Source: Candidatus Cryptobacteroides sp. (GTDB lineage Bacteria > Bacteroidota > Bacteroidia > Bacteroidales > UBA932). From it: 64,000 nucleotides of DNA. A program made the position numbers and the translations under genes. Shown here piece after piece: positions 18,779 through 51,650 of this stretch. The stretch is from positions 24,988 through 88,987 of the forward strand of contig JAZLLA010000053.1 of assembly GCA_045597895.1 (NCBI GenBank), given 5' to 3'. The notes under the pieces were generated by a model, which saw only the letters and a program-made list of their open reading frames with translations, was not told the origin of the DNA and made no database searches. How positions within the stretch are numbered: the first letter of the stretch is position 1; the number at the start of each line of letters is the position of its first letter.

Positions 18779-18783
18779 AGGCC

Positions 18784-35041: not shown

Positions 35042-35048
35042 CCACTGT

Positions 35049-35300: not shown

Positions 35301-35927
35301 ATGGAGAAGTCACTCCTTCTGGTGTTTATTCTGTTCAGCCTTCCGTTGTCTGCGCAGGAGGTCAAGGATTCTGTATCCGTTAGGGGCCCTTCTTCTCCAC
35401 AGGCAGAGAAGCGTGAGGAGCCTTCTAATAGCCGTGCAGAGTGCCGTTTGGGAACCAATATCCTGTATGATGTGGCCACTGTTGCCAATCTTTCACTGGA
35501 AATCGGTTTCGCCAGACGTGTGGCGCTTAATCTCTCCTCTGCTTTCAGTCCCTGGGACATCAAGCCAGACCTTAAATTCAGGGCCCTCCTTCTTCAGCCG
35601 GAGCTCCGTTGCTATCTTTCGAAGGGTTTCAAGGGGCACTATCTGGGCGCAGAGGGTCATTATGGATGGTACAATATCGCCATCTGCGATATGGACAGGT
35701 ATCAGGACAGGGACGGGAACACACCTCTATGGGGTGCGGGCCTCAGTTATGGATACGTCGTTTCATTCAACAGACATCTGGGTATGGACTTCAGTATCAG
35801 TGCCGGATACGCGAAACTTGTCTATGACTGCTTCTACAACATCGAGAACGGCGCAAAGTTTACCACGGTAACCCGTGAATGGTGGGGCCCCACCAGGATA
35901 GGGATGTCCATTTATTATCAGTTTTAA
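35301..35927 (+). CDS. DUF3575-family outer membrane beta-barrel protein
   Basis: Signal peptide MEKSLLLVFILFSLPLSAQE. The pattern LGTNILYDVATVANLSLEIGF...LLLQPELRCYL...GHYLGAEGHYGWYNI...GAGLSYGYV...WWGPTRIGMSIYYQF matches my memory of DUF3575, the first gene of many Bacteroidales fimbrial operons. Confidence 0.8.
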   Translation: MEKSLLLVFILFSLPLSAQEVKDSVSVRGPSSPQAEKREEPSNSRAECRLGTNILYDVATVANLSLEIGFARRVALNLSSAFSPWDIKPDLKFRALLLQPELRCYLSKGFKGHYLGAEGHYGWYNIAICDMDRYQDRDGNTPLWGAGLSYGYVVSFNRHLGMDFSISAGYAKLVYDCFYNIENGAKFTTVTREWWGPTRIGMSIYYQF

Positions 35928-35930
35928 GCC

Positions 35931-36971
35931 ATGAGGAGAATGACGTCCATACTTATGGCTTTGAGCCTTGCCACATTCTTTATCTGCTCCTGCGAGAAGA
36001 TACACGAGTTCCCTATGGAGGGGAGGGACATTGATCCTACAGAGATTGGAGCCGGTATCGACATCAGGTGCAAGGTCGAGGTTCCGGTACACGATATCAT
36101 CACGCGATCAGTGTTCTCGGACCCTCAGTCGCAGGCATCTGCTTCTGATTACGAGCGCCGTTATGTCGTGAATATATATGCAGCGGAATACACTGACACG
36201 TTGGTGGAGTCGCATACTGTATACCGCGAGGCGGAAGATGTCTCAGACCTTCTCATCGAAACGAAACTTCATGCGAGAAAGTACAGGCTGGTCGTCTGGA
36301 TGGATTATGTACGGAAGGATACTGGGCAGGACCTGTATTATCAGACAGGCGACGGCAAGATGCTGAACGCCATCCATCAGCCTTCTGCGCGCAGTTATCT
36401 TGCATGCAGCGATTTCAAGGACGCGCAGTCGTTCGTTTCGGATATCGATCTGACTTCCTATTCCGGAAAGTGGTTTGAGAGTGTGTCCATAACCGCTCCT
36501 CTTTCCCGTCCGGTAGCGAAAATCACCATCCTTGCAAGTGACTTCGAGGATTATGCTTCTTCCATAGGATACACGGGGCCGCTTTCAGCTCTGGCGGATG
36601 ACATAATCGTCGACGTCAGCTATGACGGGTACTATCCGACAGGCTTCAACGCCTTCACCGGCAAGCTGAATGACTCGGAACCGGGATACGGATTCAGTTC
36701 ATGCCTGACGTATCCTTATTCTTTGGACGGCATTGATTACACCCGTATGGGTTTCGACTATGTGTTCGTCAACAACGACAAGTCTTCCGTGACCCTCACT
36801 GTAAGGATCAAGTCCGGGAGCGGACAGTTCATCAATGAAATCAGTACCATCGTCGTTCCGGTGGAAAGGGGAAAGGAAACGGTGGTGATATATAAGTTCT
36901 TCACAAAGGAAAGTGTCCCTGGAATAGGTATCAATCCTGGATTTGACGGAGAGTTCAACGTATATGTATAG
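35931..36971 (+). CDS. FimB/Mfa2-like fimbrial anchor-type lipoprotein
   Basis: Lipobox FFICSC, 346 aa. Motifs YRLVVWMDYV, DLYYQT, DAQSF and LSRPVAKITILASD parallel the FWAD / DAFF / RPFAQLN motifs of the downstream paralogues and of the Mfa2 family. Confidence 0.55.
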   Translation: MRRMTSILMALSLATFFICSCEKIHEFPMEGRDIDPTEIGAGIDIRCKVEVPVHDIITRSVFSDPQSQASASDYERRYVVNIYAAEYTDTLVESHTVYREAEDVSDLLIETKLHARKYRLVVWMDYVRKDTGQDLYYQTGDGKMLNAIHQPSARSYLACSDFKDAQSFVSDIDLTSYSGKWFESVSITAPLSRPVAKITILASDFEDYASSIGYTGPLSALADDIIVDVSYDGYYPTGFNAFTGKLNDSEPGYGFSSCLTYPYSLDGIDYTRMGFDYVFVNNDKSSVTLTVRIKSGSGQFINEISTIVVPVERGKETVVIYKFFTKESVPGIGINPGFDGEFNVYV

Positions 36972-37701
36972 AAAGTCCTGCATATTGATAGCAATTGCTC
37001 TTGTACTGGTTTCCTGCAGCAAGGATCCGGTCGGGAGCGGGGTGGATACACGGTTCTGCGCTACCATAGAGCCCGAGGTCACCGTGCGTTCCGGTGTAGC
37101 GGAAGATGAGCCTGTCGTCGCTGACCACGCCATTCTTGAAATCTGGATGAACGGTTCCCTGAAGGTCCGTCAGGAGAAGGGAATGCAGCCGGGTGCGAAA
37201 CGGGTTGCATTTGATAATGTAAGGCTTGCCGGTGGACAGGACTATGATGTCTTCGTCTGGGTGGACTGCCAGGGATTCTATAAAACGGATGACTTGCGTA
37301 GCGTGAGCCTGAATGCTGAAACGAATTATGACGGAGGGACCCCTGGATTTGATGCTTTCTTCGCATACACGCAAATACACAGCAGCCAGGGTGGCGGTGT
37401 CTGCGATGTCGTTCTGAAAAGGCCGTTTGCCAGGCTGAACTTCAGTGCCGGTGTATCTTCGCCGGCAACGATCGGTTTTACGGCAGCCACCACGCTCGAC
37501 CTCAAAACCGGCGTGGTGTCAGGCTCCAGGGAATTCCAGTATACCATAGCTCCGACCGATTCCGGGGTGGCGGCATTCGATTATGTGTTTGCCGATGAGA
37601 GTCAGGGGCGGATGGATTATTCGTTTACTTTGGGCGGAGCTCAACCAATCACTGCTTCTATCCCGATAGAAAGGAATAAAGTAACAAATATCATAAAATA
37701 A
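36964..37701 (+). CDS. short pilin-fold lipoprotein (paralogue P3, divergent)
   Basis: Lipobox LVLVSC. Motifs VFVWVD, DAFFAY, LKRPFARLNF, FDYVFAD and ERNKVTNI. 8-nt overlap (ATGTATAG) with the upstream gene. Confidence 0.5.
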   Translation: MYRKSCILIAIALVLVSCSKDPVGSGVDTRFCATIEPEVTVRSGVAEDEPVVADHAILEIWMNGSLKVRQEKGMQPGAKRVAFDNVRLAGGQDYDVFVWVDCQGFYKTDDLRSVSLNAETNYDGGTPGFDAFFAYTQIHSSQGGGVCDVVLKRPFARLNFSAGVSSPATIGFTAATTLDLKTGVVSGSREFQYTIAPTDSGVAAFDYVFADESQGRMDYSFTLGGAQPITASIPIERNKVTNIIK

Positions 37702-37715
37702 GACCTTACCGAATT

Positions 37716-40700
37716 ATGAAAAACGCATTATTACTTCTCGCTTCCGCAGCGTTGCTCCTCGTGGGCTGTGCGAAGGAACCGGTTTCAGAGCAGGGCGGTG
37801 GGCTGACGGCAGTCACCTTTACTGCCGGATTCGAAAATGCAGCCGCTACGAGGGCGATTGCCGATAATGACGGCAACGGCGCAAATGTCACCCGCTGCAT
37901 TATGGAGATTTACTATGGAGATCAGCTCTACAAGCGCCTCGTGCAGCCTGTGTCCGCCCAGAAGGCGACATTCTCGGATGTTCCTGTAGTCGCAGGAAAG
38001 AAGTATCGCATTCTTTTCTGGGCCGACTGCGGCGACGGCCTTGAAGACAAGTACTTCGATGCTGATAACCTCAAGTCTGTCAAGCTCAAAAAGGATGCAT
38101 TCCTGACTGCGCTTAAGAGTAAGAACAATGACAAACTTGACGCATTCTTCTTCAGTGACGACTATACCGTGCCTCAGGGCGGCGGCAGTTACGATGCCAC
38201 TCTCACGCGTCCTTTCGCCCAGCTGAACATCATCACCACCGATGTGGGTGCAGACAACACCGTAACAGGCATCGACCTTCTTCCGGAGAAGGTTTCTGTC
38301 AGCTACACCGGGGCCAAAGAGATCAATGTCGCCACAGGCGAAGTGTCCGGCTCAGAGGCTTACGCATATGAGGCCTCCGTTTACGGCGAGTGGGCGACAG
38401 TAACTCCTACCCACAAGGAACTGACTCTCTCCATGGACTACATCCTCGCACCGGCAGAGAAGTCAATGATAGACGTGACCTTCAAGACAAAGAACGGTGA
38501 TGCGGTTGTGATGAACCACAGCCTGACCAATCTCCCTTGCCAGCGCAACTACCGCACCAACGTCAAGGGACAGCTCCTTACCGTCGGCGGCACCTGGACT
38601 GCAACGGTAACTCCGGACTGGACCGACTCTCGCAATGTCAACCTCAGGGAGGTGGAAGGCATAACCTCTCTCAACGAGGTGCTCGCTGTCGGCGCCAACG
38701 ACATTAAGGTCACTTTGCCTGCTACGTCTGACGGCTCGAAGGTTACCTTCACTTCTGTCAATAACCTTCAGGATATTGTCCTCAGCTTTGCGGGTTCAGG
38801 CCAGACAGTAACATTTACCAATGCTGACGGAGCGGCAGGCCCTAAGTCTCTGACTATCACCGCGCCGGAGGGCACCAGCCTTGTCTTCGAAAAGCCGCAG
38901 CAACACGTTGTCATCAACGGCACAAGCTATGATACCATTCAGGGTGCCTTCTCCGCCAACACCCTCGTCATCAGCGAAGGTGTGACTGTCGGGACCATCA
39001 AAATCACCGCCGGCGGACTTGAGATTCACGGAACTGTCAATACTATCGGCGAAGGCCTCACAAAAGATGTCAAGGTCCGCGAATGCGAAGACCTCAGCAC
39101 AAGCGTTTACAACGCGCTCAAGAATTACATCGACGCCCCTCAATACAAAGCTGTGCAGAACGGCGACAAATGGGATATCGTTGCTGCCGACAAGACCGCT
39201 ATGATAGGTGAGAACGTTTATTACAACATCACCGACGCATTGACAGCAGCCCAAAGTGGGCAGACCATAAAGCTTCTGATAGATCTTTCAGATACAGGTG
39301 TGATGAACCTCCCTGCGGGTGTCACCTTCGATGGCGACGGCCATCAGATTACCGGCGCTTCACCGATATATATCGCTGCTCAAGGCGGCACAGTGAAGAA
39401 CGTAGTCTTCAAGAATCTTCACAATGACAGCAACAAGCAGTCAGCTGCCTATGCCCAATCCCTTGCAGGCAAGGCCGAAATCTCCGGTTGTACTTTCGAT
39501 ATTTCCGACTGGGATGCCATCCAGATTACCACAAACTCTTCAAATGCCGAAATCGTCATCAAGGACAATGAGTTCAAGGCTGTTGATAAGACCGACAAGC
39601 AGAACCGCTTCATCCATATTCAGACAGACAACTATTCCAATGTTGATCTGAAGGCCGAAATTACAGGCAACAAGTTCTCAGGCATATACAACCTTCAGAA
39701 TGCTGCAATCGAGCTATATTGCCCGACCGATTTCAACAAGGTCAACATCTCAGGCAACTACCTTGACGGCAACAAGATTTCCGTATGTATAGCCAACAAG
39801 GAAAACGGTGCCTGGACAAATCATATTGAATCAGCCAAGAATTGGCTTGATGCAAACGGCCAGCCCGTAGCAATCAATGCTGCCATCAGAGCTGACGAAG
39901 CTGCAGAAAACATACTTCTCTGCACCACCCTTGAAGTCGCTCTCGAGGAATCAGCAAATTGGGCCGGCAGCCTCTGCATTCTGAACGAAACAGCTCTGCG
40001 CGAACTCTCAACCCTCGTGAATGGCGGAACCACTTTCGCGGGAAAGAAAGTTTCCCTTGTCAATGACATTGACCTCAAGAGCGTTCCTTTTACCCCGATT
40101 GGAAATGTTTCTTCTTATCCATCGGCTTCTTTTGCAGGAATTTTCGATGGAATGAACCACACTATCTCTAACCTTAAATGTACGGATAATACTCCAAATC
40201 ACGCTTGTGCCGCTTTGTTCGGAAGCATTTCTGGTAATAGCACAAGCGACTCGGGAACTGTTAAAAACTTGACGCTCAAGAATGTTGAAATAACAAGCAG
40301 CCATTATGCAGGTGGAATTGTCGCATACAGTTCTGCAAGTCCGCTTGTCATAGAGAATTGCAACATCAATGGAGGTACAATCACTTCAAGTCCTGAGTTG
40401 ATTGGAAGTACATTTGACAATGGTGATAAGGTTGGTGGCATTTTGGGTTATGCTGGTCAAGGAGGCAGTATTACAAACTGCGGAGTTCAGAACCTGACCA
40501 TTAAGGCATATCGTGACCTTGGAGGAATCGTGGGATATAACAAAAACAATATCAGCAATTGTTCAGTTGCAAACTGTGTTATTATCCAAGATAATACCAA
40601 TGCATATAAAAATGATGACATCACTACCTTTGGCGAAATAGTCGGCAATCAGGAAGTTGGAGAGTTGTCCAACAATACATACGACAACGTTATTATCAAA

Positions 40701-41528
40701 CGTATTCTCGCCGACGGTCTCATTTATACCAAAAACGCGAAGCTCTATGAGGTTTCCAAGGTGCCGGGTCTGCTTTATTTCCGTTATATGGTTACTGGCG
40801 GCAACACCTTTGCCGGCCAGACGGTGAAACTGTTGGAAGACCTCAACCTTGCATCCATTGACAATTATATTGGAACCAAGGGTAAATTCAGCGGCACCTT
40901 CGATGGTAACGGAAAAACAATCTCCAATCTAAAAATTTCAGGTGAGGCCAACAGCACTGCATTTTTCGGTAGTGTGTGGGAAGCAAACATCAAGGATCTC
41001 ACAATTTCAGGCGCCAATGTAACAAGCACCGGTGCAGACTACACAGGCATCCTTGCCGGCAATGGTTATGCTCATTTCGACAATTGTACTGTCAGCGGCA
41101 CCGTTTCAGGCGTAGAGCAGGTGGGTGCCATCATAGGATATCTCTCTTGCGGCCACATTAAGAATTGCAAGGTTGATGCTACAGTAAGTGGAACTTCACG
41201 TGTCGGTGTTCTTGCCGCTAAAGCAAATGTGGACAGTTCTTATGAGATTGAAGGTAACATCATAAAAGGCTCTGCAACTTCAGGGGATATCTATGCTGGA
41301 GGTGTTGTAGGCCAGATTATGTGCGGAACCGGAAAAGTATGGACCATCAAGAACAACTGCATTGATGCCACAGTCAGCAACGGTGGTTCTTTGATTGGCA
41401 ATGTCCGCAGCGGACAATGGGATGCCTTCCTAGCCGGTTATCAGGAGAACGTCACAGGTAACACCTGGACAGCATCAGGTAACTGCAAGATTACCGACGG
41501 TACAAATTCAGTAACAATCACTAAATAA
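37716..41528 (+). CDS. giant surface lipoprotein P4: type V pilin-fold base, conserved linker module, beta-helix-like region and two GLUG-type repeat modules
   Basis: Cys18 lipobox LLLVGC and Arg46 in ATRAIAD. Motifs FWAD, DAFF, LTRPFAQLNIITTD, MDYILA and QRNYRTNVKG in the first ~300 aa. Then ITAPEGTSLVFE...LEIHGTVN, the cap-like AMIGENVYYNITDALTAAQSGQTIKL, and repeated F.G.FDG.(N/G).TISNL plus GGIVAY/GGILGY/GGIVGY/GAIIGY strings. Confidence 0.6.
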   Translation: MKNALLLLASAALLLVGCAKEPVSEQGGGLTAVTFTAGFENAAATRAIADNDGNGANVTRCIMEIYYGDQLYKRLVQPVSAQKATFSDVPVVAGKKYRILFWADCGDGLEDKYFDADNLKSVKLKKDAFLTALKSKNNDKLDAFFFSDDYTVPQGGGSYDATLTRPFAQLNIITTDVGADNTVTGIDLLPEKVSVSYTGAKEINVATGEVSGSEAYAYEASVYGEWATVTPTHKELTLSMDYILAPAEKSMIDVTFKTKNGDAVVMNHSLTNLPCQRNYRTNVKGQLLTVGGTWTATVTPDWTDSRNVNLREVEGITSLNEVLAVGANDIKVTLPATSDGSKVTFTSVNNLQDIVLSFAGSGQTVTFTNADGAAGPKSLTITAPEGTSLVFEKPQQHVVINGTSYDTIQGAFSANTLVISEGVTVGTIKITAGGLEIHGTVNTIGEGLTKDVKVRECEDLSTSVYNALKNYIDAPQYKAVQNGDKWDIVAADKTAMIGENVYYNITDALTAAQSGQTIKLLIDLSDTGVMNLPAGVTFDGDGHQITGASPIYIAAQGGTVKNVVFKNLHNDSNKQSAAYAQSLAGKAEISGCTFDISDWDAIQITTNSSNAEIVIKDNEFKAVDKTDKQNRFIHIQTDNYSNVDLKAEITGNKFSGIYNLQNAAIELYCPTDFNKVNISGNYLDGNKISVCIANKENGAWTNHIESAKNWLDANGQPVAINAAIRADEAAENILLCTTLEVALEESANWAGSLCILNETALRELSTLVNGGTTFAGKKVSLVNDIDLKSVPFTPIGNVSSYPSASFAGIFDGMNHTISNLKCTDNTPNHACAALFGSISGNSTSDSGTVKNLTLKNVEITSSHYAGGIVAYSSASPLVIENCNINGGTITSSPELIGSTFDNGDKVGGILGYAGQGGSITNCGVQNLTIKAYRDLGGIVGYNKNNISNCSVANCVIIQDNTNAYKNDDITTFGEIVGNQEVGELSNNTYDNVIIKRILADGLIYTKNAKLYEVSKVPGLLYFRYMVTGGNTFAGQTVKLLEDLNLASIDNYIGTKGKFSGTFDGNGKTISNLKISGEANSTAFFGSVWEANIKDLTISGANVTSTGADYTGILAGNGYAHFDNCTVSGTVSGVEQVGAIIGYLSCGHIKNCKVDATVSGTSRVGVLAAKANVDSSYEIEGNIIKGSATSGDIYAGGVVGQIMCGTGKVWTIKNNCIDATVSNGGSLIGNVRSGQWDAFLAGYQENVTGNTWTASGNCKITDGTNSVTITK

Positions 41529-41537
41529 AATAAGACT

Positions 41538-44500
41538 ATGAAAAAAGTTTTTTTTCTTCTCGCTTCTGCAGCGCTTCTCATCGTGGGCTGCAACAAGGAG
41601 CAAATGTCCAATGGCACGGACGGCGGAATGATCACCGCCACCTTTACCGCCAATCTTGAAAGCGGAGTCGCCACCAGGGCTGTCGCTGACGGCGATGGTG
41701 CTGCTGCCAATGTCAACCGCTGTATTATGGAAATCTACTACGGTGATGCCCTCTATGCAAGGCAGATTGCCAAGGTTACGGACAAGCAGGCCACCTTTAA
41801 TGCTCAGGTAGTATCCAACAGAGGCTACACTGTTGCATTCTGGGCGGACCGCGTCGACGATGCAACTTCCGATACTGGTCTTGCAGCTGACAAGTATTAC
41901 AATACAGCATCTCTTAAGGAGATTACCTTCAAGAGCTCCTATGTCGGCAACGACGATGCACGTGATGCGTTCTTCGTATGCGAACCTTTCACGGTTAAGC
42001 AGACAGGAGGTGCATTCTCTGCAACGCTCAAGCGTCCGTTCGCCCAGATGAACGTCATCACCACCGATTGGGACAAGGTTACTACTGTAGAAGCCCTCAT
42101 ACCTGAGAAAGTGCAGGTCATCCTCAAGAACCCTATGGTCAAGTTCAACGCCGTTACCGGCGAGGCGTCTGCTGACGCGAACACTCCTTCCTTGACCTAT
42201 ACTGCAGCTGTTTACACTGCACCTGTTCCTGAAGAGCCCGTATCTACAACCGAAAAGACCCTCTCAATGGATTATCTCTTCGCTTCTGCAGATAAAGCCG
42301 TCATCGACATCGACTGGAAGGCCCTCCACGGCAGCGATACCGATGTAGAGCACACTTTCGCAGCAGTTCCTTACCAGCGCAACTACCGCACCAACATCAA
42401 GGGAGCCCTCCTTACAACCCAGGGCCAGTGGACAGTAGAGATTGATCCGCTTTGGGATTCACTCAATGACGGAAGCAAGGATATCAATGTTTACTACACA
42501 ACGGTAAATGAGGCTTCTGAAGTCAAAGGTGTTATCGAGGACAAGAAAGAAGATACAACCAAGGACGGACAGCCGATTTCCGTGACCATCAACAATGAAG
42601 TCGGAGGCCCGACCAACGACGATATCATCATTCCTGACAATACTCCTAAGGAAAAAACTCCTGAAATTATCCTAGACTTCAAGAAATTGTCGGCCGGTGC
42701 TCAGATTGTGATTCGTGACGAAGAGCATCCGAGAGATGCGGATGATGCTGCAAATGGTGCCAAAGAGTATGAAGGCGAAGTTGTAGTAATCGTACCTGAA
42801 GGAACCACTGCAACTCAGGTGAAGATTCTCACCAGCAAGTCAACCGTCACCGTACGTGGTGAGTATGGCACCGTTATCGCTTCTTGCGCACCTCAGACCA
42901 TTATCGTTGAGAAGGAAACCGTTATCGAAACTCTCGAAGTGATGAAGGGTAATGTGGAAGTTTACGGAAGGGTTAATTCTATTGTCAATAAAACTGCTGA
43001 GACAGAAGATGCTAAAGAATTAGTCTATGTTTACCTCTTCCAGGGTTCTACCTGGACGAAAGTTGAGACAGAAAAGAATGAGAAACTCGTTCCTCTTTAC
43101 CCTGTAGCCAAAGTTGGAGATAATATCTATTTCTCTGTCAAAGAGGCTCTTGCAGCTGTAAAGGCTGGTGATGTACTCACTCTGGTTTCAGATGCCACAC
43201 TTGATAAGAAACTTGTCATCAACGGTGGCAAGGACTTCACCCTTGACCTTGGTGGAAAGACCCTCACCGGTCGTGTAAATGTTGACGGCGCCAAATTGGT
43301 TGTGAAGAACGGTACAATCAATGCCGGTTCCTTCAATCAGGCATTGAACGTATACGGCTCAAAGGACCCTCAGTATAAGGATGGTATTTATTCATATGTG
43401 AAAGTTGAAAGCGATGTCATCCTTGACGGTGCAGTTTGCGCTCTTGGCATAATGAGCGTCAATGGAGATACATATTATCCTCTTGCATATGGTGTAAAGG
43501 TTGATTTCTATGGAAAGGCTTTGAACGTTCCTGCACAGGTAAGTGGGAACATTGGATTTGACAATTACAAGGCTAATATAGGCAATATTGACATTTCTGC
43601 CAATCTTCCTGCCGGAATCAGTGCTCCGAGCAAGGCGATGAGCCTCTACGGTCCCGTTGTAAACATTTATGGAGAAATGAGAAGCACTTATGCTCAAGAA
43701 GAGTGCCAGGCATTCATTCTAAGCGGCATGGCCCGCGTTAACGTTTATGATGGTGCATACATTGAGGGGGCTGAGGGCTTTGCAATGAAGTCCGGCAACT
43801 TGCACGTATATGGTGGAACCATCAAATCCAATGGCTCAAAAATAGATCCTGTCCAGGCTGTGAACAGCGGAGCCGAGGCATCAGGTGCTGCTATTTCAAT
43901 CACCAGCTACTATACTCACGATTTGTTTGAAGATAGGGCAAAAATACAGGTAAACATTGAAGGTGGTGAAATCCTGGCAGATAATAATGCCGCCCTTCTT
44001 GTGACACATTCTTATGCGGAATCCAAGCCTGTTGCCCTCAAGCAGGGTGTTGATCTTGCTATCAACGGAGGAAAGTTCACCAGCGGTTCAGGCATCCCTG
44101 TTATTTTTATCGACAATGCTGCAGAAGGCGACGCATTTGCAATGCCTGCCAAATTCATCTCCGGTGGCCAGTACAACAAGGCTCCTGAAGCCGGCTACAT
44201 TGCAGATGGCAAGAAAGCCGAACAGGATACTCATGGAAATTGGGAGATTGTGATGGATGAGCTCGCAACTGTCAATGGTATTAAATATGCTACTGTTCAA
44301 GAAGCCATTGAGGCAGCCAATACAGGTGATGTCATCAATGTCTATGGAACAACAAATTTCACCAAGTCTGATGACGGTTTCTGCTATGTCGATGCTACCA
44401 ACAAAACAGGACGACTCGTGCTTGTGGAACTTGTCAATGAAGGAAGCCCTACAACAAACGCTTCGCTGAAGGTAAATACTGCTCCTGCTGTAAATTCAAT

Positions 44501-45200
44501 GACATTCCAGACATTGTGGCTGGGCAGTGCAAGTCGTCTTGACGCTCCCGGCTCGTATCTGAAGAGTGGTGATGTGCTGGTGTTGCCAGCAAAGACTATG
44601 TACCTCAATAATGGCCCTATATATGATATGTATGGCGATATAACATTATTGGGAAAGAAAGGGAAAACTGTAATTAAACCGTGGGGAAGCCCTTCTTCGA
44701 AAGCACGTTTCTTCCGTCTGTATAATCGTTATAAAGCGAATATTGAAAATAAGATTATTTATCATTTCAATTTCAGAAATGTAACTTTTGACGGGGAACT
44801 GAAAAATAATGGTGAGAATCTGTTTATCGTAACTTGCTACAACATACAGATTAATATGGATGGTTGTACTGTTAAGAATTTCCCTGGAAGTGTCTTCAGC
44901 ATTTGGGCAAATGATGCTCTTAGTGATTCTTCATTCCCTACTAGAGAAGATAATGCTGGTGTTGAAGTAAATATCACCAATTCCACATTGACAGGAAACG
45001 GACGGCTGGTTAGATATGATTGCATACCAACTCAGTCAGATGTTAGCGCAAGTCTTAATAAGTATGGATTCATCCACGTGAATTATGATGCAAACTCTGT
45101 AGTGAATTGTACGGAAATGTACAATTTCAACGAAGTCACCGCCAAGGGTCAAGGCAACTGTCTCTTGAATGGTGTTGATGTTAGACCTGCAGATAACTAA
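41538..45200 (+). CDS. giant surface lipoprotein P5: pilin-fold base, conserved linker module and two beta-helix-like head modules
   Basis: Cys18 LLIVGC and Arg47 in ATRAVAD. Motifs FWAD, DAFF, LKRPFAQMNVITTD, MDYLFA and QRNYRTNIKG. Then the cap-like AKVGDNIYFSVKEALAAVKAGDVLTL and ATVNGIKYATVQEAIEAANTGDVINV. Module end GYIADGKKAEQDTHGNWEIV. Confidence 0.6.
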   Translation: MKKVFFLLASAALLIVGCNKEQMSNGTDGGMITATFTANLESGVATRAVADGDGAAANVNRCIMEIYYGDALYARQIAKVTDKQATFNAQVVSNRGYTVAFWADRVDDATSDTGLAADKYYNTASLKEITFKSSYVGNDDARDAFFVCEPFTVKQTGGAFSATLKRPFAQMNVITTDWDKVTTVEALIPEKVQVILKNPMVKFNAVTGEASADANTPSLTYTAAVYTAPVPEEPVSTTEKTLSMDYLFASADKAVIDIDWKALHGSDTDVEHTFAAVPYQRNYRTNIKGALLTTQGQWTVEIDPLWDSLNDGSKDINVYYTTVNEASEVKGVIEDKKEDTTKDGQPISVTINNEVGGPTNDDIIIPDNTPKEKTPEIILDFKKLSAGAQIVIRDEEHPRDADDAANGAKEYEGEVVVIVPEGTTATQVKILTSKSTVTVRGEYGTVIASCAPQTIIVEKETVIETLEVMKGNVEVYGRVNSIVNKTAETEDAKELVYVYLFQGSTWTKVETEKNEKLVPLYPVAKVGDNIYFSVKEALAAVKAGDVLTLVSDATLDKKLVINGGKDFTLDLGGKTLTGRVNVDGAKLVVKNGTINAGSFNQALNVYGSKDPQYKDGIYSYVKVESDVILDGAVCALGIMSVNGDTYYPLAYGVKVDFYGKALNVPAQVSGNIGFDNYKANIGNIDISANLPAGISAPSKAMSLYGPVVNIYGEMRSTYAQEECQAFILSGMARVNVYDGAYIEGAEGFAMKSGNLHVYGGTIKSNGSKIDPVQAVNSGAEASGAAISITSYYTHDLFEDRAKIQVNIEGGEILADNNAALLVTHSYAESKPVALKQGVDLAINGGKFTSGSGIPVIFIDNAAEGDAFAMPAKFISGGQYNKAPEAGYIADGKKAEQDTHGNWEIVMDELATVNGIKYATVQEAIEAANTGDVINVYGTTNFTKSDDGFCYVDATNKTGRLVLVELVNEGSPTTNASLKVNTAPAVNSMTFQTLWLGSASRLDAPGSYLKSGDVLVLPAKTMYLNNGPIYDMYGDITLLGKKGKTVIKPWGSPSSKARFFRLYNRYKANIENKIIYHFNFRNVTFDGELKNNGENLFIVTCYNIQINMDGCTVKNFPGSVFSIWANDALSDSSFPTREDNAGVEVNITNSTLTGNGRLVRYDCIPTQSDVSASLNKYGFIHVNYDANSVVNCTEMYNFNEVTAKGQGNCLLNGVDVRPADN

Positions 45201-45210
45201 CATAACTTTT

Positions 45211-45240
45211 TCCCGGGCGGGCCTGACCGCCCGACCGGGA
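45211..45240. repeat. GC-rich hairpin after P5 (member of a 3-copy intergenic hairpin family)
   Basis: TCCCGGGCGG GCCTGA CCGCCCG(AC)CGGGA: a 7-bp core stem plus an outer TCC/GGA. Related to 45715-45736 and 49382-49411. Confidence 0.6.
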
Positions 45241-45353
45241 TCCAAAGGAAACATAACAAATCAAATCAACAAAATAGCATGACCGGGCGTATCCATAACA
45301 TAACGAGAGCCACCTGCAGGCAAGCAGGCGGCTCCCGAACGGATGGGAAGAAG

Positions 45354-45698
45354 ATGGTTCAATTACCGTCTCCGGTAATGGGCTTTGACGTAAACCTTGC
45401 GGCCATTAACCACTCGGAAGTGGCCTCTGACACGGACCGGTTTGCGGCGAGACTCATCCTCACAGACTATCGTAAGGCGCTCTCTCGTGTTCTTAATTGT
45501 AAGGGCAATTTTCATAATATTGAAATTTTTAAGTCTGAGAACAAGGAGCGGCTTGAAATAGAGTACTCCATCCGTTTAGACAAAAACAGGACACCTATTC
45601 AAAATGAATCAAATGTCCTGTTGTACTTAGAGCACGAGAGCTTGCCTCCTCTCGACTTAAAATCGCCTTACGGGTGTAAAGGTATGAACAAATATTAA
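45354..45698 (+). CDS. orphan hypothetical ORF inside the 500-bp P5-P6 spacer (coding status doubtful)
   Basis: Open frame (139 aa from 45279, 114 aa from 45354) with no signal peptide and no motif I recognise. Its codon usage is A/T-ending, unlike its neighbours. Confidence 0.2.
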   Translation: MVQLPSPVMGFDVNLAAINHSEVASDTDRFAARLILTDYRKALSRVLNCKGNFHNIEIFKSENKERLEIEYSIRLDKNRTPIQNESNVLLYLEHESLPPLDLKSPYGCKGMNKY

Positions 45699-45714
45699 TA
45701 ATTCAAAATTTCCC

Positions 45715-45736
45715 CTTCCGGGCTTGACCGCCCGGG
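45715..45736. repeat. GC-rich hairpin (partial copy) before P6
   Basis: CCGGGC TTGACC GCCCGG followed by GAGCAAATAGAAA. The 16-nt core CGGGCtTGACCGCCCG repeats 45218-45233 exactly 500 bp upstream, with 1 mismatch. Confidence 0.6.
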
Positions 45737-45780
45737 AGCAAATAGAAAGAAAACAGATTATAGAAAACCAAAAAACGAAT

Positions 45781-48700
45781 ATGAAAAAAACTTTGTTACT
45801 TCTTGCTTCAGCAGCGCTTCTCATTGTGGGCTGCAACAAGGAACAGGTCGCAGAGAATGTGGCCGGTGAAGGTTTACAGACCGTAAGTTTCACCGTAGGT
45901 GTAGAATCAATTGCAACCAGAGCCGTTGATGACAATGACGGTAAAGCCGCTAACATCAACCAATGGGTGATACAGGTTATGGATTCGGATGGTGGAGTAT
46001 ATCATCATAAGGCAGAAAGCGGCGAATTGGGAAATACAACTCACACCTTCAATGTCCCTCTCGTCAAAGGCCAGACCTATAACATTCTTTTCTGGGCTGA
46101 TACCAAGGACAGTTATGTAGTTACAGACCTTCGCCAGGTAAAACGTTCTGAGAAAACATACCTCAAGGCAAACGCCGACAGCCTCGACGCTTTCAGTGCA
46201 GTGGTCAAGGATTTCTCCACCACTGTCGCCTCTAAGAAGGACATCACCCTCAAGCGCCCCTTCGCTCAGCTCAACGTCGTGTTCACAGACCTGAAGAAGC
46301 TGTATGAGACGATGAATAATTCTGATGAGTATGCAAAGTTCAAACCCGTTGACTTTGTTGCAAAGGCAAAGGTTCCTACAGAATTCAACGTGTTTACCCA
46401 GGAGGCCGGTGCCCCTGCAGAGACCGCTCTTGTAATGACAGCCGCTAAGGATTATCTTGGCAACTATACTTCCCATCGTGCCAAGGAGACTCTCTATATG
46501 GACTACATCTTTGCCTCCAAGGACACCAAGGACGTAGTTGACATCGACTTCTCCTTCGTGTCAAAGGGTGTTTCCATCGCACACAACTTCACATCCATAC
46601 CTTTCCAGCGCAACTTCCGCACCAACATCCTCGGTGAGTTCATGAGTGCAGGCGCCCAGTGGAATGTTAAGGTTGATCCTATCTGGTCAACTCCTGAATA
46701 TGATGTTCCGTTCCTTGCGGCTTCAACAATTGCTGAAGCTCAGAGCTATATTGCACCTGAAGCTGAAGGAACACAGACGTCAAAGGTCGTGGATCTTTCC
46801 AAAGCCACCATTACTGCGGAAGACATTGATGACGAAGATAATACAATCAAGTTTGAGTTGACGACCCATTCTCCTGCCGATATGGTCAACTTCACCCTTC
46901 CTGCAATCCCACAAGATGTTATCGATGCAGGTTGCACAGGTTGGAAGATTACTTACGAAGAAGGATATCCTACTAAGAATGTAAACGTAACCGCTCCTGA
47001 AGGAACTAATGTGACCATTGAAGCACCGGATTCGCATGTAACTCTGAATGGTACTGAGTATGAGCAGGTTACTGCCTCTACCGGTGACAAAACTCTTGTC
47101 GTTCCTGCAGGCGTAACTATTGATAAACTTATCGTCAAGAAGGGTGCCGTAGAGATCCACGGAACTGTCAACCACCTTACCGTTACCCCTGAAGAAGGTA
47201 AAGAAGTTGTCTTCCGCGCTTGCGAAGGCCTGAGCGCAGATGTATTTGCAGCCATCAAGGGAGAAGGTCACGACTATATCGATTATCCTATGTACACCTA
47301 CGAGCTTGTCGGTGAGAAATACAACATCTACAAACTCCCTGTAGTCGCTATGATCGGTGAGGCTGAGTATCCTTCAATCGCCGCAGCTCTTGCAGCTGTT
47401 CCTGCAGACAACACTGAGCTTGTTACCATCAAAGTGATGAGCGACGTGGCTATCAATTCAAGCTCTCTTGCAATCAACAAGAATAACGTCGTCCTCGATG
47501 GTCAGGGTCATACAATCGCTATCGATGAGACTGATGCCAGCCTTGATCCGTATCTTGTAGATGGAACTAGTAAGAGATATGGCAGTTTCCAGATGATTAA
47601 AGTATCAGGTAATGATGTTATTCTCAAGAATATGACTCTAGACAGCAGGAATTACCGTGGAGCTTCTCTTGCCACTACCTGTGGAGGCAAGAATGTTTCC
47701 TATGAGAACATTATCTACAAGGGCCTTGGTTCTGGGCACTATTATGGTTCTGCTGGCGGTGATGGTACTTTGAAATTCAAGAATTGTACATTCGAAACTC
47801 ACGGATATGCTATCCACACTGCAGAATGTCAATCTGTACTCGAAGTTTCAGACTGCGAAATCCATGGTTGGGTTTCCTATGGTGACAAAACAAAGAGTGC
47901 AACATTCACAAATACACACTTCTATTCAACTACGGATCAATACAATGGCGTTATTGCTACAATTCGTCCTTATTGCGCTACTACCTTTACCAATTGCACT
48001 TTCTCAAAAGAGTATTTGTCAAAATACAAATATGATGGCTTGACTGTAAGAAGCAATGTTGTTGTGTCTCTTAAAGGCTGTTCCGTTGAAGATGGCGAAC
48101 TTTGTGATATCGCCAACTTCACTGGCGATGATCCTTGGATTGACGGTGGCGTAATGGCTATCGATGCTACCGGCAACGCTACCAACGGCTTCACCGCAGG
48201 TACATTCGTAGCAAAGCAGGCAGAGGACATCAAGGTTTCATCCTTGTCAGAGTTGAAGACTGTTGAGGGAAAGCAGTATGTATATAAGGTTTCTGTTATT
48301 CCTGTTGCAAAGATAGGTGAAACTGAGTATGAAACCCTGCAGGCCGCTTTTGATGCCGTTCCTGACGGAACAAAAACCACTATCACTCTTATTGCCGATG
48401 CTAAGGCCGCAACTCTTGGAGACAAGAACAACATCGGAGCAAAGACTGTTATTCTCAACCTCAACGGCCACAGTATCACAGGCTATATGAGAGGCATCAC
48501 CGCTTTGACAGGCTCCACTTCTCTCGATGGTGCAACCCTGATCAACTATGCCAACCTCACCATCAATGGAGAGGGTACAATCGGTGATCTTGAAGGAGAT
48601 TATCATCACAATGCTCTTGTAAACATGTCTGATGGCACTAACCTAACAATTAATGGTGGAACATTTGTGGCAAAGAGCTGCTGCGTATACCACTATTCTG

Positions 48701-49374
48701 CAAGCAGTCAGGCCAATACCGCTTCTATTAATATCAATGGAGGCAACTTCAAGGCATATGAAAATGCAGCGACCAATAAATACGTGTTCGGTATCGGTGG
48801 AAAATCAGGCCAGACCCTAACATTCGACTATAAGAATGCATCAGCAGAAGGTGCAAAAGGTATCTACTGCAGCCTTGCCGGTACGGCAATCAATGTTCAC
48901 TCAGGTTCAATCACAGCTGATATCAATGCCATCAATCTGAGTATGGGCAAGAATGTTACCATAAATATCGATGGCGGCAAATTGGAGACTTTGGATTCAG
49001 AAAGTCATGCCAATAATTATATGTCGAATGGGTCATATGCGGGATCATCACTTCCTATTTTTGCCAGCGCATTCGGTAGCGAGAATGTCGTTTGTAACAT
49101 AAGCGGTGGAGAATTTATCTATCCTTATTACTCTTGGCAGAGTAGTGGAACCAAACCTGCAACCTGGGAGCGTGTAATCAACGCTGGTGTGGGCATTACC
49201 AGCAACGTGGCCAATGCCAACATTACTGCATCCCTCACCGGCGGTACCTATTCAACCAACCAGATGCTTTCCGACATCACAAATGATCAGTCTGCGGCAT
49301 CAGGAATTGTAGCAGAAGGCTACACCTGCAAGAATAATGGCGACGGTACCTGGACAGTGGTAGCAGCTAACTAA
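45781..49374 (+). CDS. giant surface lipoprotein P6: pilin-fold base, conserved linker module and two beta-helix-like head modules
   Basis: Cys18 LLIVGC and Arg47 in ATRAVDD. Motifs FWAD, DAFS, LKRPFAQLNVVFTD, MDYIFA and QRNFRTNILG. Then VTAPEGTNVTIE...VEIHGTVN, and the cap-like AMIGEAEYPSIAAALAAV and AKIGETEYETLQAAFDAV. Terminal AEGYTCKNNGDGTWTVVAAN. Confidence 0.6.
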   Translation: MKKTLLLLASAALLIVGCNKEQVAENVAGEGLQTVSFTVGVESIATRAVDDNDGKAANINQWVIQVMDSDGGVYHHKAESGELGNTTHTFNVPLVKGQTYNILFWADTKDSYVVTDLRQVKRSEKTYLKANADSLDAFSAVVKDFSTTVASKKDITLKRPFAQLNVVFTDLKKLYETMNNSDEYAKFKPVDFVAKAKVPTEFNVFTQEAGAPAETALVMTAAKDYLGNYTSHRAKETLYMDYIFASKDTKDVVDIDFSFVSKGVSIAHNFTSIPFQRNFRTNILGEFMSAGAQWNVKVDPIWSTPEYDVPFLAASTIAEAQSYIAPEAEGTQTSKVVDLSKATITAEDIDDEDNTIKFELTTHSPADMVNFTLPAIPQDVIDAGCTGWKITYEEGYPTKNVNVTAPEGTNVTIEAPDSHVTLNGTEYEQVTASTGDKTLVVPAGVTIDKLIVKKGAVEIHGTVNHLTVTPEEGKEVVFRACEGLSADVFAAIKGEGHDYIDYPMYTYELVGEKYNIYKLPVVAMIGEAEYPSIAAALAAVPADNTELVTIKVMSDVAINSSSLAINKNNVVLDGQGHTIAIDETDASLDPYLVDGTSKRYGSFQMIKVSGNDVILKNMTLDSRNYRGASLATTCGGKNVSYENIIYKGLGSGHYYGSAGGDGTLKFKNCTFETHGYAIHTAECQSVLEVSDCEIHGWVSYGDKTKSATFTNTHFYSTTDQYNGVIATIRPYCATTFTNCTFSKEYLSKYKYDGLTVRSNVVVSLKGCSVEDGELCDIANFTGDDPWIDGGVMAIDATGNATNGFTAGTFVAKQAEDIKVSSLSELKTVEGKQYVYKVSVIPVAKIGETEYETLQAAFDAVPDGTKTTITLIADAKAATLGDKNNIGAKTVILNLNGHSITGYMRGITALTGSTSLDGATLINYANLTINGEGTIGDLEGDYHHNALVNMSDGTNLTINGGTFVAKSCCVYHYSASSQANTASININGGNFKAYENAATNKYVFGIGGKSGQTLTFDYKNASAEGAKGIYCSLAGTAINVHSGSITADINAINLSMGKNVTINIDGGKLETLDSESHANNYMSNGSYAGSSLPIFASAFGSENVVCNISGGEFIYPYYSWQSSGTKPATWERVINAGVGITSNVANANITASLTGGTYSTNQMLSDITNDQSAASGIVAEGYTCKNNGDGTWTVVAAN

Positions 49375-49381
49375 TCTTTTT

Positions 49382-49411
49382 TCCCGGGCGGGCGATCAAG
49401 CCCGCCCGGGA
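49382..49411. repeat. GC-rich perfect hairpin after P6
   Basis: TCCCGGGCGGGC GATCAA GCCCGCCCGGGA (12-bp stem) followed by GCAAATTGAAA, the same tail as the copy at 45737. Confidence 0.8.
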
Positions 49412-49437
49412 GCAAATTGAAACGAAGAACTATATTT

Positions 49438-50349
49438 ATGAAAAAATCATTATTTGCGATTGCTTCTATGGCACTCCTGCTTGCGGGGTGTGCCAAGGAA
49501 CAGATATCAAGCCCGGCAGGTGATGGGCAGACCGTCAAGGTGAGCGTCATGGCGCAGTTGCAGAACGGCGGCCAGACCAGGGCCACCTGGGACCATGATG
49601 GTGAAGGTGCGCTTGTGGACCACTGGATTATGGAGGTCTATGATGCTCAGGGATTGCTTTTCGATCGTCAGGAAAAAAGCGGGCAGTCCGGCCTTACAAA
49701 CACATTCGAGCTGGCTCTCATAAAGAACCAGACCTATAAGTTCGCCTTCTGGGCGGACACGAAGGATATGTACGACACAGCCGACCTTCGTGCCGTCAAG
49801 ACGGTTTCCCGCAAGGCTGGCCGCGACAGCAGGGACGCATTCTTTGCAGCGAAGGAGTATACTTCCACAAAGAGCGAGACTCTCACGGCGGAACTTTACC
49901 GCCCGTTCGCACAGATCAATGTCGTGACTCTCGATCTCGACAAGATTTATAAGCAGATGGAAGCGGCAGAGACGACTGCGAATTATGACAAGTTTATTCC
50001 TACCGAGATCAAACTCACAGGTGAGACATACAACCAGTTCAATGTTCTGACCGGAGAGGTCTCGGATGTCCAGTCGTATGTGCTCAACCTTGCAAGCTGC
50101 TATGCCGATTATGCCGCACACGCTGAGGTAAGCACCATTTTCATGGATTATGTATTCGCCAAGACTGAAAAAGAGCTCAAGGATCTTTCCTTCTCTTTCG
50201 TCTCAAATAAAGTACCTGTCTCATACAGCTTTGCGAATGTCCCTGTCCAGCGCAACTACCGTACGAACATCACCGGCAACCTGCTCAGTTATGACGCTGA
50301 GTGGTCAGTGGAAATCATTCCTGCCTGGCTGGGAACCCACGAGTACTAA
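49438..50349 (+). CDS. short pilin-fold lipoprotein P7 (headless paralogue)
   Basis: Cys18 LLLAGC and Arg48 in QTRATWD. Motifs FWAD, DAFF, LYRPFAQINVVTLD, MDYVFA and QRNYRTNITG. It ends right after WSVEIIPAWLG. Confidence 0.6.
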   Translation: MKKSLFAIASMALLLAGCAKEQISSPAGDGQTVKVSVMAQLQNGGQTRATWDHDGEGALVDHWIMEVYDAQGLLFDRQEKSGQSGLTNTFELALIKNQTYKFAFWADTKDMYDTADLRAVKTVSRKAGRDSRDAFFAAKEYTSTKSETLTAELYRPFAQINVVTLDLDKIYKQMEAAETTANYDKFIPTEIKLTGETYNQFNVLTGEVSDVQSYVLNLASCYADYAAHAEVSTIFMDYVFAKTEKELKDLSFSFVSNKVPVSYSFANVPVQRNYRTNITGNLLSYDAEWSVEIIPAWLGTHEY

Positions 50350-50383
50350 TGGTCAGAGCTTCGATAGATAAACGTTTCAATTT

Positions 50384-51331
50384 ATGAAAAACAAGATATT
50401 GATCATTGCTTCAGCTGCACTTCTGTTTACCGGGTGCGCTAAAGAGAACATACCTGGCAGTGAAGGCACAGTGAAAGTATGTGTGACCGCTCAGGTTCAG
50501 AATGCTACAGACCCTTCGACAAGGGCATCGTGGGACAATGACGGCAAGGGCTCCAAGGTTGATCACTGGGTTGTCGAGGTAAGGGACATCCTCGATATGG
50601 AGACCGTCTATTACCACGCAGAGAAGACCGGCGACGAGGGCGTTCTCGAGCAGACCTTCGACCTTTATCTCATCCCTGAACACACTTATGACATCGCTTT
50701 CTGGGCTGACAGGGCCGAATGCTACAATACTGAAGACCTTACAGCCGTAGAGTGCAAGGATGTGACAAAGATTGGCAACTCAGACGATTTCGACGGATTC
50801 TTCAGGTGTGTCCGCCATGTTGTGGACGGAGACGATAAGCTCTCCGCACGCCTGTATCGCTCTTTCGCCCAGGTCAATGTCGTCACTACCGATCTCCCGA
50901 AACTGAAGTCTTCAACCACTCCTGAGGCTTATGCCCTCTATGAGCCTGTGGACTATTCCTTCAAGCTGACCGTTCCTACTGTACTCAATGCCTTTACAGG
51001 TGAGACTTCCGGTGAGGAGGAGATCACTATCACTCCGGAGGATGATGTCAATCATTGCTACGGTGACTATGACACTGCCTCGGAGATTACGACCCTCTAT
51101 ATGGTTTATGTCCTCACGAGCAAGCCGACGAGCATTTGGGACAAGGATGTCCGTGATATTGATTTTGCATTCAATACCGGTGATGTGGAACTTGCTTATG
51201 ACTTCAAGAATATACCTCTGAAGAGAAACTTCCGTACCAATATCATCGGATCCTTCATGACCAACACTCTCAAGTGGACTGTTGAAGTCGTTCCAGACTG
51301 GCTCGGTGAGATACCTTCCTTATATTTTTGA
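50384..51331 (+). CDS. short pilin-fold lipoprotein P8 (headless paralogue)
   Basis: Cys18 LLFTGC and Arg47 in STRASWD. Motifs FWAD, DGFF, LYRSFAQVNVVTTD and KRNFRTNIIG. It ends after WTVEVVPDWLG. Confidence 0.6.
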   Translation: MKNKILIIASAALLFTGCAKENIPGSEGTVKVCVTAQVQNATDPSTRASWDNDGKGSKVDHWVVEVRDILDMETVYYHAEKTGDEGVLEQTFDLYLIPEHTYDIAFWADRAECYNTEDLTAVECKDVTKIGNSDDFDGFFRCVRHVVDGDDKLSARLYRSFAQVNVVTTDLPKLKSSTTPEAYALYEPVDYSFKLTVPTVLNAFTGETSGEEEITITPEDDVNHCYGDYDTASEITTLYMVYVLTSKPTSIWDKDVRDIDFAFNTGDVELAYDFKNIPLKRNFRTNIIGSFMTNTLKWTVEVVPDWLGEIPSLYF

Positions 51332-51636: not shown

Positions 51637-51650
51637 CTGACAAATGTTTT

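Follow-up and report, generated by a model that had tools for sequence, protein, structure and literature searches.

A candidate phase-variable adhesin operon of DUF6562 pilin-like lipoproteins in Candidatus Cryptobacteroides sp.

Organisation of the locus

The analysed stretch of Candidatus Cryptobacteroides sp. DNA (64,000 nucleotides of contig JAZLLA010000053.1, hereafter the window) contains between 33.9 and 51.3 kb a tyrosine recombinase gene, a pair of inverted repeats, the gene of a DUF3575 outer-membrane beta-barrel (P1) and seven genes of DUF6562 lipoproteins (P2 to P8), all of them on the + strand. With moderate confidence, and from sequence, structural models and analogy, we interpret this set as a phase-variable surface-adhesin operon that represents a divergent and as yet uncharacterised offshoot of the type V (FimA/Mfa-type) pili; the giant proteins P4, P5 and P6 would be its distal adhesins, and the subunit roles given below are predicted ones. 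The features are as follows (E values refer to Pfam families; pLDDT, predicted local distance difference test).

33921-34949, + strand: tyrosine recombinase (Phage_int_SAM_5, E = 1.7e-11; Phage_integrase, E = 4.5e-11)
34914-35065, unstranded: inverton, perfect 17-nt inverted repeats (34914-34930 and 35049-35065) around 118 nt
35301-35927, + strand: P1, DUF3575 outer-membrane beta-barrel (PF12099, E = 1.4e-36)
35931-36971, + strand: P2, putative base-type DUF6562 lipoprotein, 346 aa (DUF6562, E = 3.6e-70)
36964-37701, + strand: P3, tail-less DUF6562 paralogue, 245 aa (DUF6562, E = 4.6e-8; alignment)
37716-41528, + strand: P4, chimera, 1270 aa (DUF6562, E = 3.8e-21; Glug, E = 1.4e-9)
41538-45200, + strand: P5, chimera, 1220 aa (DUF6562, E = 1.6e-28)
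45781-49374, + strand: P6, chimera, 1197 aa (DUF6562, 68.9 bits; Pectate_lyase_5; AlphaFold pLDDT 76.9)
49438-50349, + strand: P7, headless pilin-like protein, 303 aa (DUF6562, E = 1.4e-16; AlphaFold pLDDT 86.1; Foldseek)
50384-51331, + strand: P8, headless pilin-like protein, 315 aa (DUF6562, E = 1.4e-10)

The coordinates of the open reading frames (ORFs) agree with the original prediction, which had described a DUF3575 barrel followed by co-oriented, tightly packed lipoproteins at 35301-51331. The intergenic gaps from P1 to P8 measure -8 to 63 nt, with the single exception of 580 nt between P5 and P6. G+C content is 43-52% across the operon region and 55-60% in its flanks, which are metabolic (carboxylesterase, alpha-galactosidase, a BACON-endonuclease lipoprotein, M3 peptidase, EamA transporter and kinase).

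The recombinase gene has a likely ATG start at 33951, and its 3' end overlaps the left inverted repeat. Inside the 118-nt invertible segment a promoter-like TTTG at 35010 is followed, after N20, by TATATTTG at 35034-35041, on the + strand and directed toward the operon. A scan of 34900-35300 for the Bacteroides-type promoter consensus yielded three TAnnTTTG matches on the + strand and none on the - strand; from these motifs we read the segment as standing in the ON orientation. The window possesses a recombinase gene beside a short, repeat-flanked segment with a predicted promoter, as Tsr-type invertible promoters do. Homologous recombinases occur upstream of the DUF3575 gene in four related loci (L032, L039, L044, L059), and all four possess inverted repeats, 17-30 nt long and spaced by 122-189 nt. 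Outside the inverton, at 35264-35271, a second Bacteroides-type -7 motif, TATGTTTG, precedes the P1 start by 30 nt; TTTG boxes accompany it at 35235-35249.

The DUF6562 family and its relation to Mfa2 and FimA

All lipoproteins of the operon exceed the gathering score (25 bits) of Pfam DUF6562 (PF20200): P2 with 237 bits, P3 with 33.3, P4 with 76.3, P5 with 100.5, P6 with 68.9, P7 with 61.3 and P8 with 41.6. The count of six paralogues given originally therefore becomes seven, since P2 belongs to the same family and is its top match. Paralogy is far above chance in pairwise BLASTP comparisons among P3 to P8 (E = 1e-10 to 1e-76; P8 shares 41% identity with P7 and 39% with the N-domain of P6), and the profiles of P2-like and P7-like proteins align over their full length with a probability of 99.9% (hhalign). 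The motif set said to be shared by the paralogues is present, with small deviations in P6 (DAFS), P8 (RSFAQ, MVYVLT, KRNFRTN) and P3 (FVWVD, RPFAR, ERNKVTN); P3 lacks the final W.V. motif and ends 5 residues past its RN..TN motif.

Pfam Mfa2 (PF08842) has no match to any protein of the window at E values up to 0.1. Its cut-off is passed by 8 of 48 relatives, and short, long and P2-like relatives reach 25-31 bits against a cut-off of 21.2, one P2-like protein aligning to profile positions 42-270 of 277. Neither Pfam nor NCBIfam profiles of FimA (PF06321) or Mfa1 match P2 to P8; a single relative out of 48 matched P_gingi_FimA, at E = 0.12. NCBIfam has no family for P1 to P8, and one P7 homologue is named 'FimB/Mfa2 family fimbrial subunit' by NCBI. 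Judged by these profile matches and by the predicted fold, DUF6562 is a sister family of Mfa2/FimB within the type V pilin superfamily and not a member of Mfa2.

Predicted fold

None of the family's members has had its structure solved. AlphaFold models were obtained for P7, from 48 sequences (mean pLDDT 86.1), and for full-length P6 (pLDDT 76.9). When the P7 model is compared with the PDB by Foldseek, each of the top 20 matches is a type V pilin of Bacteroidales (probability 1.0, E = 5.6e-9 to 1e-5), including the Mfa2 anchor 5nfi, Mfa4 5dhm, 3gf8 and several pilins of the Joint Center for Structural Genomics; polymerised FimA (6kmf) ranks 22nd. For residues ~30-300 of the P6 model the top 25 matches are Bacteroidales type V pilins as well (E = 1.8e-8), with Mfa3 5nf4 and FimA 4q98 in addition. 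Both predicted structures comprise two beta-sandwich (transthyretin-like) domains. When the PDB was searched by sequence, neither the three heads nor profiles built from the paralogues, the P7-like and the P2-like proteins gave a significant match (best 3gf8, E = 0.12-0.6), so the link to pilins rests on the fold and on the bridging Pfam matches. These two lines uphold the assignment of the shared N-domain to the type V pilin/Mfa2 superfamily, and no placement outside it was seen.

Lipobox, basic loop site and C-terminal tail

Type V pilins reach the surface as lipoproteins; a protease cuts at a conserved Arg behind the N-terminal anchor strand, and that strand gives way to the C-terminal donor strand of the following subunit, whereas anchor subunits have no cleavage site and tip pilins no donor strands (PMC13655056; bioRxiv 10.1101/2024.11.15.621889). 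The cleavage residues are R46 in FimA and R49 in Mfa1 (PMC13655056), and R43 in BfrT (bioRxiv 10.1101/2024.11.15.621889).

A lipobox Cys follows a hydrophobic signal peptide at residue 18 of P3 to P8 and at residue 21 of P2; among relatives, 112/120 long, 39/44 P2-like and 32/41 short proteins have a lipobox too. The P7 model shows a first strand at 33-42, the predicted anchor strand (~32-41), and then a loop of low pLDDT containing T-R-A. A basic residue in this post-anchor loop is kept in all seven paralogues: R42 in P3, T58-R59-S60 in P2, T45-R46-A47 in P4, T46-R47-A48 in P5, P6 and P8, and T47-R48-A49 in P7. The alignment shows it in 66/66 long homologues (52 K, 14 R), 48/48 P7-like and 41/43 P2-like proteins (37 R, 4 K), usually preceded by T or S and followed by A ([ST]-[RK]-A), P2 having S in the last place. 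Its position agrees with those of FimA R46, Mfa1 R49 and BfrT R43, and this loop would be the cleavage site of an Arg/Lys-specific protease.

In P4 to P8 and their homologues the loop at ~45-56 (window 45916-45951 in P6) extends, in close relatives of the giants, to a near-invariant T-[KR]-A-x-x-D-x-D-G-x-A. Counts among the 66 long homologues are 62 for T, 66 for K/R, 65 for A, 64 and 63 for the two D and 65 for G, and the loop is modelled as flexible. The extended motif looks like the recognition site of a dedicated protease or a functional new N-terminus.

Behind the last core strand (QRNYRTN motif) a tail of alternating hydrophobic residues, of the form h-x-[IV]-x-[IV]-x-P-x-[FWY], is kept in the long, short and P2-like classes. 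It occurs in P2 (GIGINPGFDGEFNVYV), P4 (WTATVTPDW), P5 (WTVEIDPLW), P6 (residues 291-302, WNVKVDPIW), P7 (EWSVEIIPAWLGTHEY, the core ending at ~residue 280) and P8 (KWTVEVVPDWLGEIPSLYF), and is absent from P3. The tail is internal in P4 to P6; P2, P7 and P8 end 10-12 residues beyond it. It may act as C-terminal donor strand.

The tail motif is conserved in long proteins as well as in short ones (W294 in at least 90% and W302 in all of the 66 long homologues), and cleavage-type sites occur in all classes. Both would suit a bottle-brush fibre, in which the internal tails of the giants join them to each other as well as to P7 and P8, no stalk subunit is without a beta-helix head, and the DUF3575 barrel (the only other conserved gene) holds the fibre in the membrane in place of an uncleaved pilin. 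An internal donor strand is, however, without precedent, and the linker behind the tail comprises just ~10 disordered residues. We consider such a fibre improbable.

The giant paralogues P4 to P6

The original description of P4, P5 and P6 as a pilin domain with ~900 further residues is borne out by Pfam, the P6 model and Foldseek, which add that the extensions are beta-helix heads. In P4 the pilin domain (~1-305) is followed by a neck, a beta-helix and GLUG repeats; its head matches Glug in four stretches, Beta_helix weakly, and resembles Peptidase_M26_N (the N-region of IgA1 protease). P5 contains beta-helix-cap motifs at residues 526 and 912, and its head matches no Pfam family. The P6 model consists, behind the pilin domain, of a disordered linker (300-308), a beta-rich neck (311-500), a right-handed beta-helix (~505-880) and a second module (841-1197). 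No type IX secretion C-terminal sorting domain is found among the Pfam matches of P4 to P6 (E up to 0.1; segments up to 1).

P6 matches Pectate_lyase_5 ('pectate lyase-like adhesive domain') with 27.7 bits, above the cut-off, and the fold of its beta-helix resembles pectin methylesterases (8tne, 1gq8; Foldseek template modelling (TM) score 0.53-0.58). The heads could be pectin esterases or lyases, i.e. glycan-processing enzymes tethered to the surface on a pilin-fold pedestal, a reading to which a Pectinesterase match of P6 (E = 4e-5) and the presence of glycoside hydrolase and esterase genes nearby would also lend themselves. That match is weak (22.9 bits, below the 27-bit cut-off) and spans only profile positions 3-102 of 298, and the Pfam match that does pass its threshold is to an adhesive domain. 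The catalytic signatures of CE8, which we take to be QDT[LVI], D[FYW][IVL][FWY]G and vWiDH, are absent from P4 to P6, and the heads are exchanged between strains in the manner of antigenic or adhesive cassettes. The enzyme reading of the P6 helix was rejected on the missing esterase and lyase signatures; a surface enzyme role is unlikely, and tethered glycan processing by the heads as a whole appears very improbable.

P4, P5 and P6 are alike over the pilin domain and neck to ~residue 500-550 and divergent beyond. Residues 841-1197 of P6 are 85% identical to the C-terminus of a related protein (P0130) whose first 800 residues differ, and residues 1-904 of P5 are 65% identical to 1113-aa proteins bearing another C-terminal module. 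The closest public genome, a metagenome-assembled genome (MAG) of Candidatus Cryptobacteroides sp. (locus L004), shows 95-99% nucleotide identity in the shared parts, and its orthologues of P4, P7 and P8 are 94%, 99% and 91% identical. The giants between P4 and P7 are different alleles there, 43% (in the place of P5) and 35% identical, the replacement having its left breakpoint ~210 nt into P5 and its right one where P7 begins. Over their first 65-70 nt, which encode signal peptide and lipobox, the giant genes are conserved at 87-94% of DNA positions, synonymous ones included (window 37716-37785, 41538-41607 and 45781-45850; L004 2676-2740 and 6467-6531), while the remainder diverges; these 5' ends could serve as recombination substrate. 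The giants had been called alternative adhesins, which is unproven; P4 to P6 share one operon behind one invertible promoter. A natural tandem pilin fusion would offer an inbuilt check on strand complementation, but the sole candidate (P0145) was discarded, since it looks like a mis-called or frameshifted gene.

The barrel P1 and the base-type subunit P2

P1 scores 125.9 bits against a DUF3575 cut-off of 21.1 and possesses a signal peptide and a C-terminal YYQF, in accordance with its original label as a DUF3575 barrel. With 208 aa it is a short form, the DUF3575 proteins of related loci spanning 186-459 aa. Many of the latter (L013, L018, L077 and others) are 405-459 aa long and have ~240 additional N-terminal residues in front of the barrel, with one weak OmpA-like match. 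In the literature DUF3575 appears in gene tables only, with no function assigned.

P2 carries an IHEFP motif straight after its Cys, and P2-like proteins share a C-DVHEFPE motif directly behind the lipidated Cys. The best 120 P2-like relatives are 326-368 aa long and never fused. P2 had been taken for an anchor of the Mfa2/FimB type. It belongs instead to the same DUF6562 family as the other lipoproteins, does not match PF08842, and its class retains in 41 of 43 members the basic residue that classical anchors lack. A first regular-expression test (25/39 P2-like proteins) had suggested frequent loss of the basic site, as in a classical anchor; the alignment overturned it.

The short subunits P3, P7 and P8

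P3 starts at the ATG at 36964 (alternatively at a TTG at 36943). Tail-less proteins of 275-290 aa fill the same position in L039, L041 and L045, as does a 268-aa gene in L077, for which reason P3 represents a recurrent class and not a pseudogene. A trailing pair of short genes behind the long ones, like P7 and P8, is common to the window, L001, L002 and L004. The statement that the locus lacks a stalk pilin was based on size alone. P7 and P8 possess lipobox, anchor strand, R/K site and tail, and are similar in size to solved stalk pilins (271-357 residues in the PDB chains matched). As both carry every sequence hallmark of a polymerising pilin, the absence of a stalk is not established, and P7 and P8 may be short stalk or adaptor subunits.

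Operon architecture in related genomes

A family profile made from the seven N-domains was searched against cluster representatives at 50% identity and recovered 7,872 representatives of the DUF6562 type, 2,817 of them with E < 1e-30. Of the best 150, 31 are at most 400 aa long, 21 are 401-700 aa, 34 are 701-1000 aa and 64 exceed 1000 aa, i.e. 119/150 are longer than 400 aa. In species-representative genomes one peptide pattern alone led to over 576 confirmed loci, nearly all in Bacteroidales (lineages including Muribaculaceae, Rikenellaceae/Alistipes, Prevotellaceae, Paludibacteraceae and that of the Cryptobacteroides MAG). A few loci with DUF3575/DUF6562 operons typical of Bacteroidales stand under Firmicutes or spirochaete names (L012, L019, L020, L026, L055, L062 and L067; Wujia, Spirochaetota, Acutalibacteraceae, Roseburia faecis, Butyricicoccaceae, Treponemataceae); they all belong to a single 'cleanbin' series, and mis-binning of these contigs is the probable reason.

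Across the 76 loci compared, DUF6562 and DUF3575 are the only conserved gene families. Fifty-one arrays, the window's own included, lie fully inside these loci, and in 31 of them DUF3575 is directly upstream of the first DUF6562 gene. The next gene in all 31 barrel-linked arrays encodes one P2-like protein of 330-395 aa, and between one and five long fusions come after it; barrel, P2-like gene and a single long gene make up the most frequent form (13 arrays). An independently gene-called contig shows the identical operon order. With its three giants and two headless genes, the window ranks beside L060 as the most elaborate form observed. L060 (MAG Bacteroidales RGIG8520, 1678-19500) contains at least five consecutive giant DUF6562 fusions of 911-1098 aa besides short members, a larger battery than that of the window.

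No paper was found that names DUF6562 or describes the family, and to this extent the original suggestion of an undescribed architecture stands. The architecture itself is common and its operon order recurs across Bacteroidales: the domain is catalogued in Pfam, and the system is widespread yet uncharacterised, hence less singular than first thought.

Proposed assembly and its rivals

In the interpretation given at the outset, the invertible promoter, now facing the operon, would turn the entire set ON or OFF, and the subunits would be transported, in lipoprotein form, to the surface of the cell. An Arg/Lys-specific protease would then cut the [ST]-[RK]-A loop, freeing the subunit from its lipid and opening the groove of the anchor strand, into which the C-terminal tail of a neighbouring subunit would fit (protease-mediated strand exchange). 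P2, present once per barrel-linked operon and beside the barrel gene, would join with DUF3575 in forming the cell-proximal base; P7 and P8, being headless, could be short stalk or adaptor subunits, and P3, tail-less and thus accepting a strand only, would be a cap. P4 to P6 would be distal, tip-type adhesin subunits presenting their ~900-residue beta-helix heads. A type V-pilus-like adhesin system with the giants in this distal role is the best-supported reading; from the lipobox through the presumed cleavage residue and the pilin domains to the putative binding module at the C-terminus, they have the layout shown experimentally for Bacteroides tip adhesins that are diversified by diversity-generating retroelements (DGRs). 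The device is probably a very short fibril of base and adhesin, not a long polymer, because most related operons consist of barrel, P2-like gene and long fusions only.

Several observations weigh against this interpretation. TM-scores to solved pilins are modest (0.42-0.56), and in the P6 and P7 models the tail is a low-confidence coil (pLDDT 46-79), not a strand. No subunit class is devoid of the basic site, hence there is no classical uncleaved anchor; the tail of the giants is internal, while work on Mfa1 points to a free C-terminus as the start of strand exchange (PMC13655056). These two features, which depart from the textbook scheme, keep rival explanations open. Among the barrel-linked arrays 21/31 have no further short subunit and so no stalk candidate, and 14/51 arrays are lone long genes with neither barrel nor P2-like gene. 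Given the second promoter-like motif outside the inverton, inversion may not control the operon completely. For no DUF6562 protein has cleavage, a polymer or localisation at the surface been observed to date.

Much of this would equally be expected of stand-alone surface lipoprotein adhesins, each paralogue sitting on its own lipid anchor or being shed, with the pilin fold as a mere pedestal, no strand exchange or fibre, and DUF3575 and P2 serving export or stabilisation. The lone long genes, the scarcity of stalk candidates, the basic site in every class and the tail that is not modelled as a strand all fit, and in the DGR study the pilin-like BovT and BfiT were not incorporated into pili (bioRxiv 10.1101/2024.11.15.621889). 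The 100% conservation of [ST]-[RK]-A within a flexible loop and the strand-like tail retained by every class are, on the other hand, hard to explain without processing and strand exchange; P2-like protein and barrel are strictly coupled to long genes in 31 arrays, and the recurrent tail-less class of P3 suggests specialised acceptor-only and donor roles. We regard stand-alone adhesins as possible, though rather doubtful.

A further variant would keep the strand exchange of the favoured adhesin operon and dispense with stalk and anchor: all subunits, the base included, would be processed by the protease, the DUF3575 barrel would hold the fibre or adhesin, and the internal tail of the giants might serve as donor, each subunit then bearing a head. 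We think this unlikely.

Spacer, direct repeats and neighbouring genes

The widest gap of the operon has the following content.

45201-45780, + strand: P5-P6 spacer, with an unannotated ORF (45279-45698, 139 aa) and GC-rich hairpins

The 139-aa ORF has no Pfam match and is flanked by hairpins of the type CCCGGGCGGGC...GCCCGCCCGGG at 45212-45240 and 45716-45742; the same hairpin is repeated 3' of P6 at 49384-49410. The spacer with its hairpins may be a small insertion, or an element of mRNA processing or attenuation.

A direct repeat of ~50 nt, TTTTTTCGTTTT(A/G)TTGAAAATCAGTAACTTTACGGC(C/T)ATGAAAAAGA, occurs at 32335-32386 and 51650-51701 (chance expectation 0). The two copies enclose 19.3 kb with the BACON-endonuclease gene, the recombinase and the entire operon, and span the 5' untranslated region and start codon of the endonuclease gene and of the M3 peptidase gene, respectively. 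The repeat could mark an island boundary or duplication, or be a shared regulatory leader. The endonuclease gene (32379-33839), directly upstream of the recombinase and within the bracketed segment, encodes a lipoprotein in which BACON domains are joined to a DNA/RNA non-specific endonuclease (E = 1.1e-29).

Comparison with known systems

In Bacteroidales, which dominate among the Gram-negative orders of the gut, type V pili are the chief fibres of adhesion, and their assembly is understood almost solely from two systems of Porphyromonas gingivalis. Against the textbook scheme the locus has rules of its own: one pilin family, a barrel gene first in the operon, no classical stalk or uncleaved anchor, heads fused in cis and swapped between near-identical strains, and a predicted ON/OFF promoter switch. 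If the proposed mechanism is true, it would account for the variation of the adhesive surface in many uncultured Bacteroidales of the gut and would give DUF3575 and DUF6562 their first functions; if the assembly without stalk and anchor is true, it would provide the first function for DUF3575 and a second assembly logic for type V pili.

With the P. gingivalis type V pili (FimA-E, Mfa1-5) the window shares lipoprotein precursors, the (predicted) two beta-sandwich fold, the basic-site loop after the anchor strand, the C-terminal tail, several paralogous subunits per operon and a giant accessory subunit (Mfa5 in P. gingivalis). In contrast to them, it has no stalk gene of the FimA/Mfa1 family, all its subunits being DUF6562; its base-type subunit retains the basic site, unlike Mfa2/FimB; its operon opens with a DUF3575 gene, runs from base to giants to short pilins, and fuses the heads in cis to the pilin domain. 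The Pfam Mfa2 family (PF08842, formerly DUF1812; 3gf8, 5nfi) is nearest to the window proteins in sequence and fold, but DUF6562 retains the basic residue, and most of its best-scoring members carry long C-terminal fusions.

The concept of modular tip adhesins in type V pili is established, and for the DGR tip adhesins BfrT, BthT and BunT of Bacteroides, R43 processing and surface exposure were shown experimentally (bioRxiv 10.1101/2024.11.15.621889). The giants resemble these in signal peptide, lipobox, cleavable Arg, N- and C-terminal pilin domains, a C-terminal ligand-binding domain (cleavage and binding being predicted at the window) and gene position downstream of base or stalk genes. They differ in their heads, which are 900-residue beta-helices instead of small variable ligand-binding domains, and in their pilin family; the window has no DGR and varies by replacement of whole modules or genes between strains.

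The Mfa1-type fimbriae of Phocaeicola vulgatus and Bacteroides fragilis likewise have a tyrosine recombinase gene directly upstream and a short repeat-flanked invertible promoter, the Tsr-controlled inversion of which was shown experimentally in P. vulgatus (PMC12940148). Their inverted-repeat sequence is another one, and they consist of Mfa1 and Mfa2, in contrast to DUF3575 and DUF6562 here. Beta-helix adhesin modules, finally (Pectate_lyase_5, GLUG and the M26 N-region of IgA1 protease), are matched by P4 and P6, the latter being modelled as a right-handed parallel beta-helix; the window differs in mounting these modules on a lipoprotein pilin domain.

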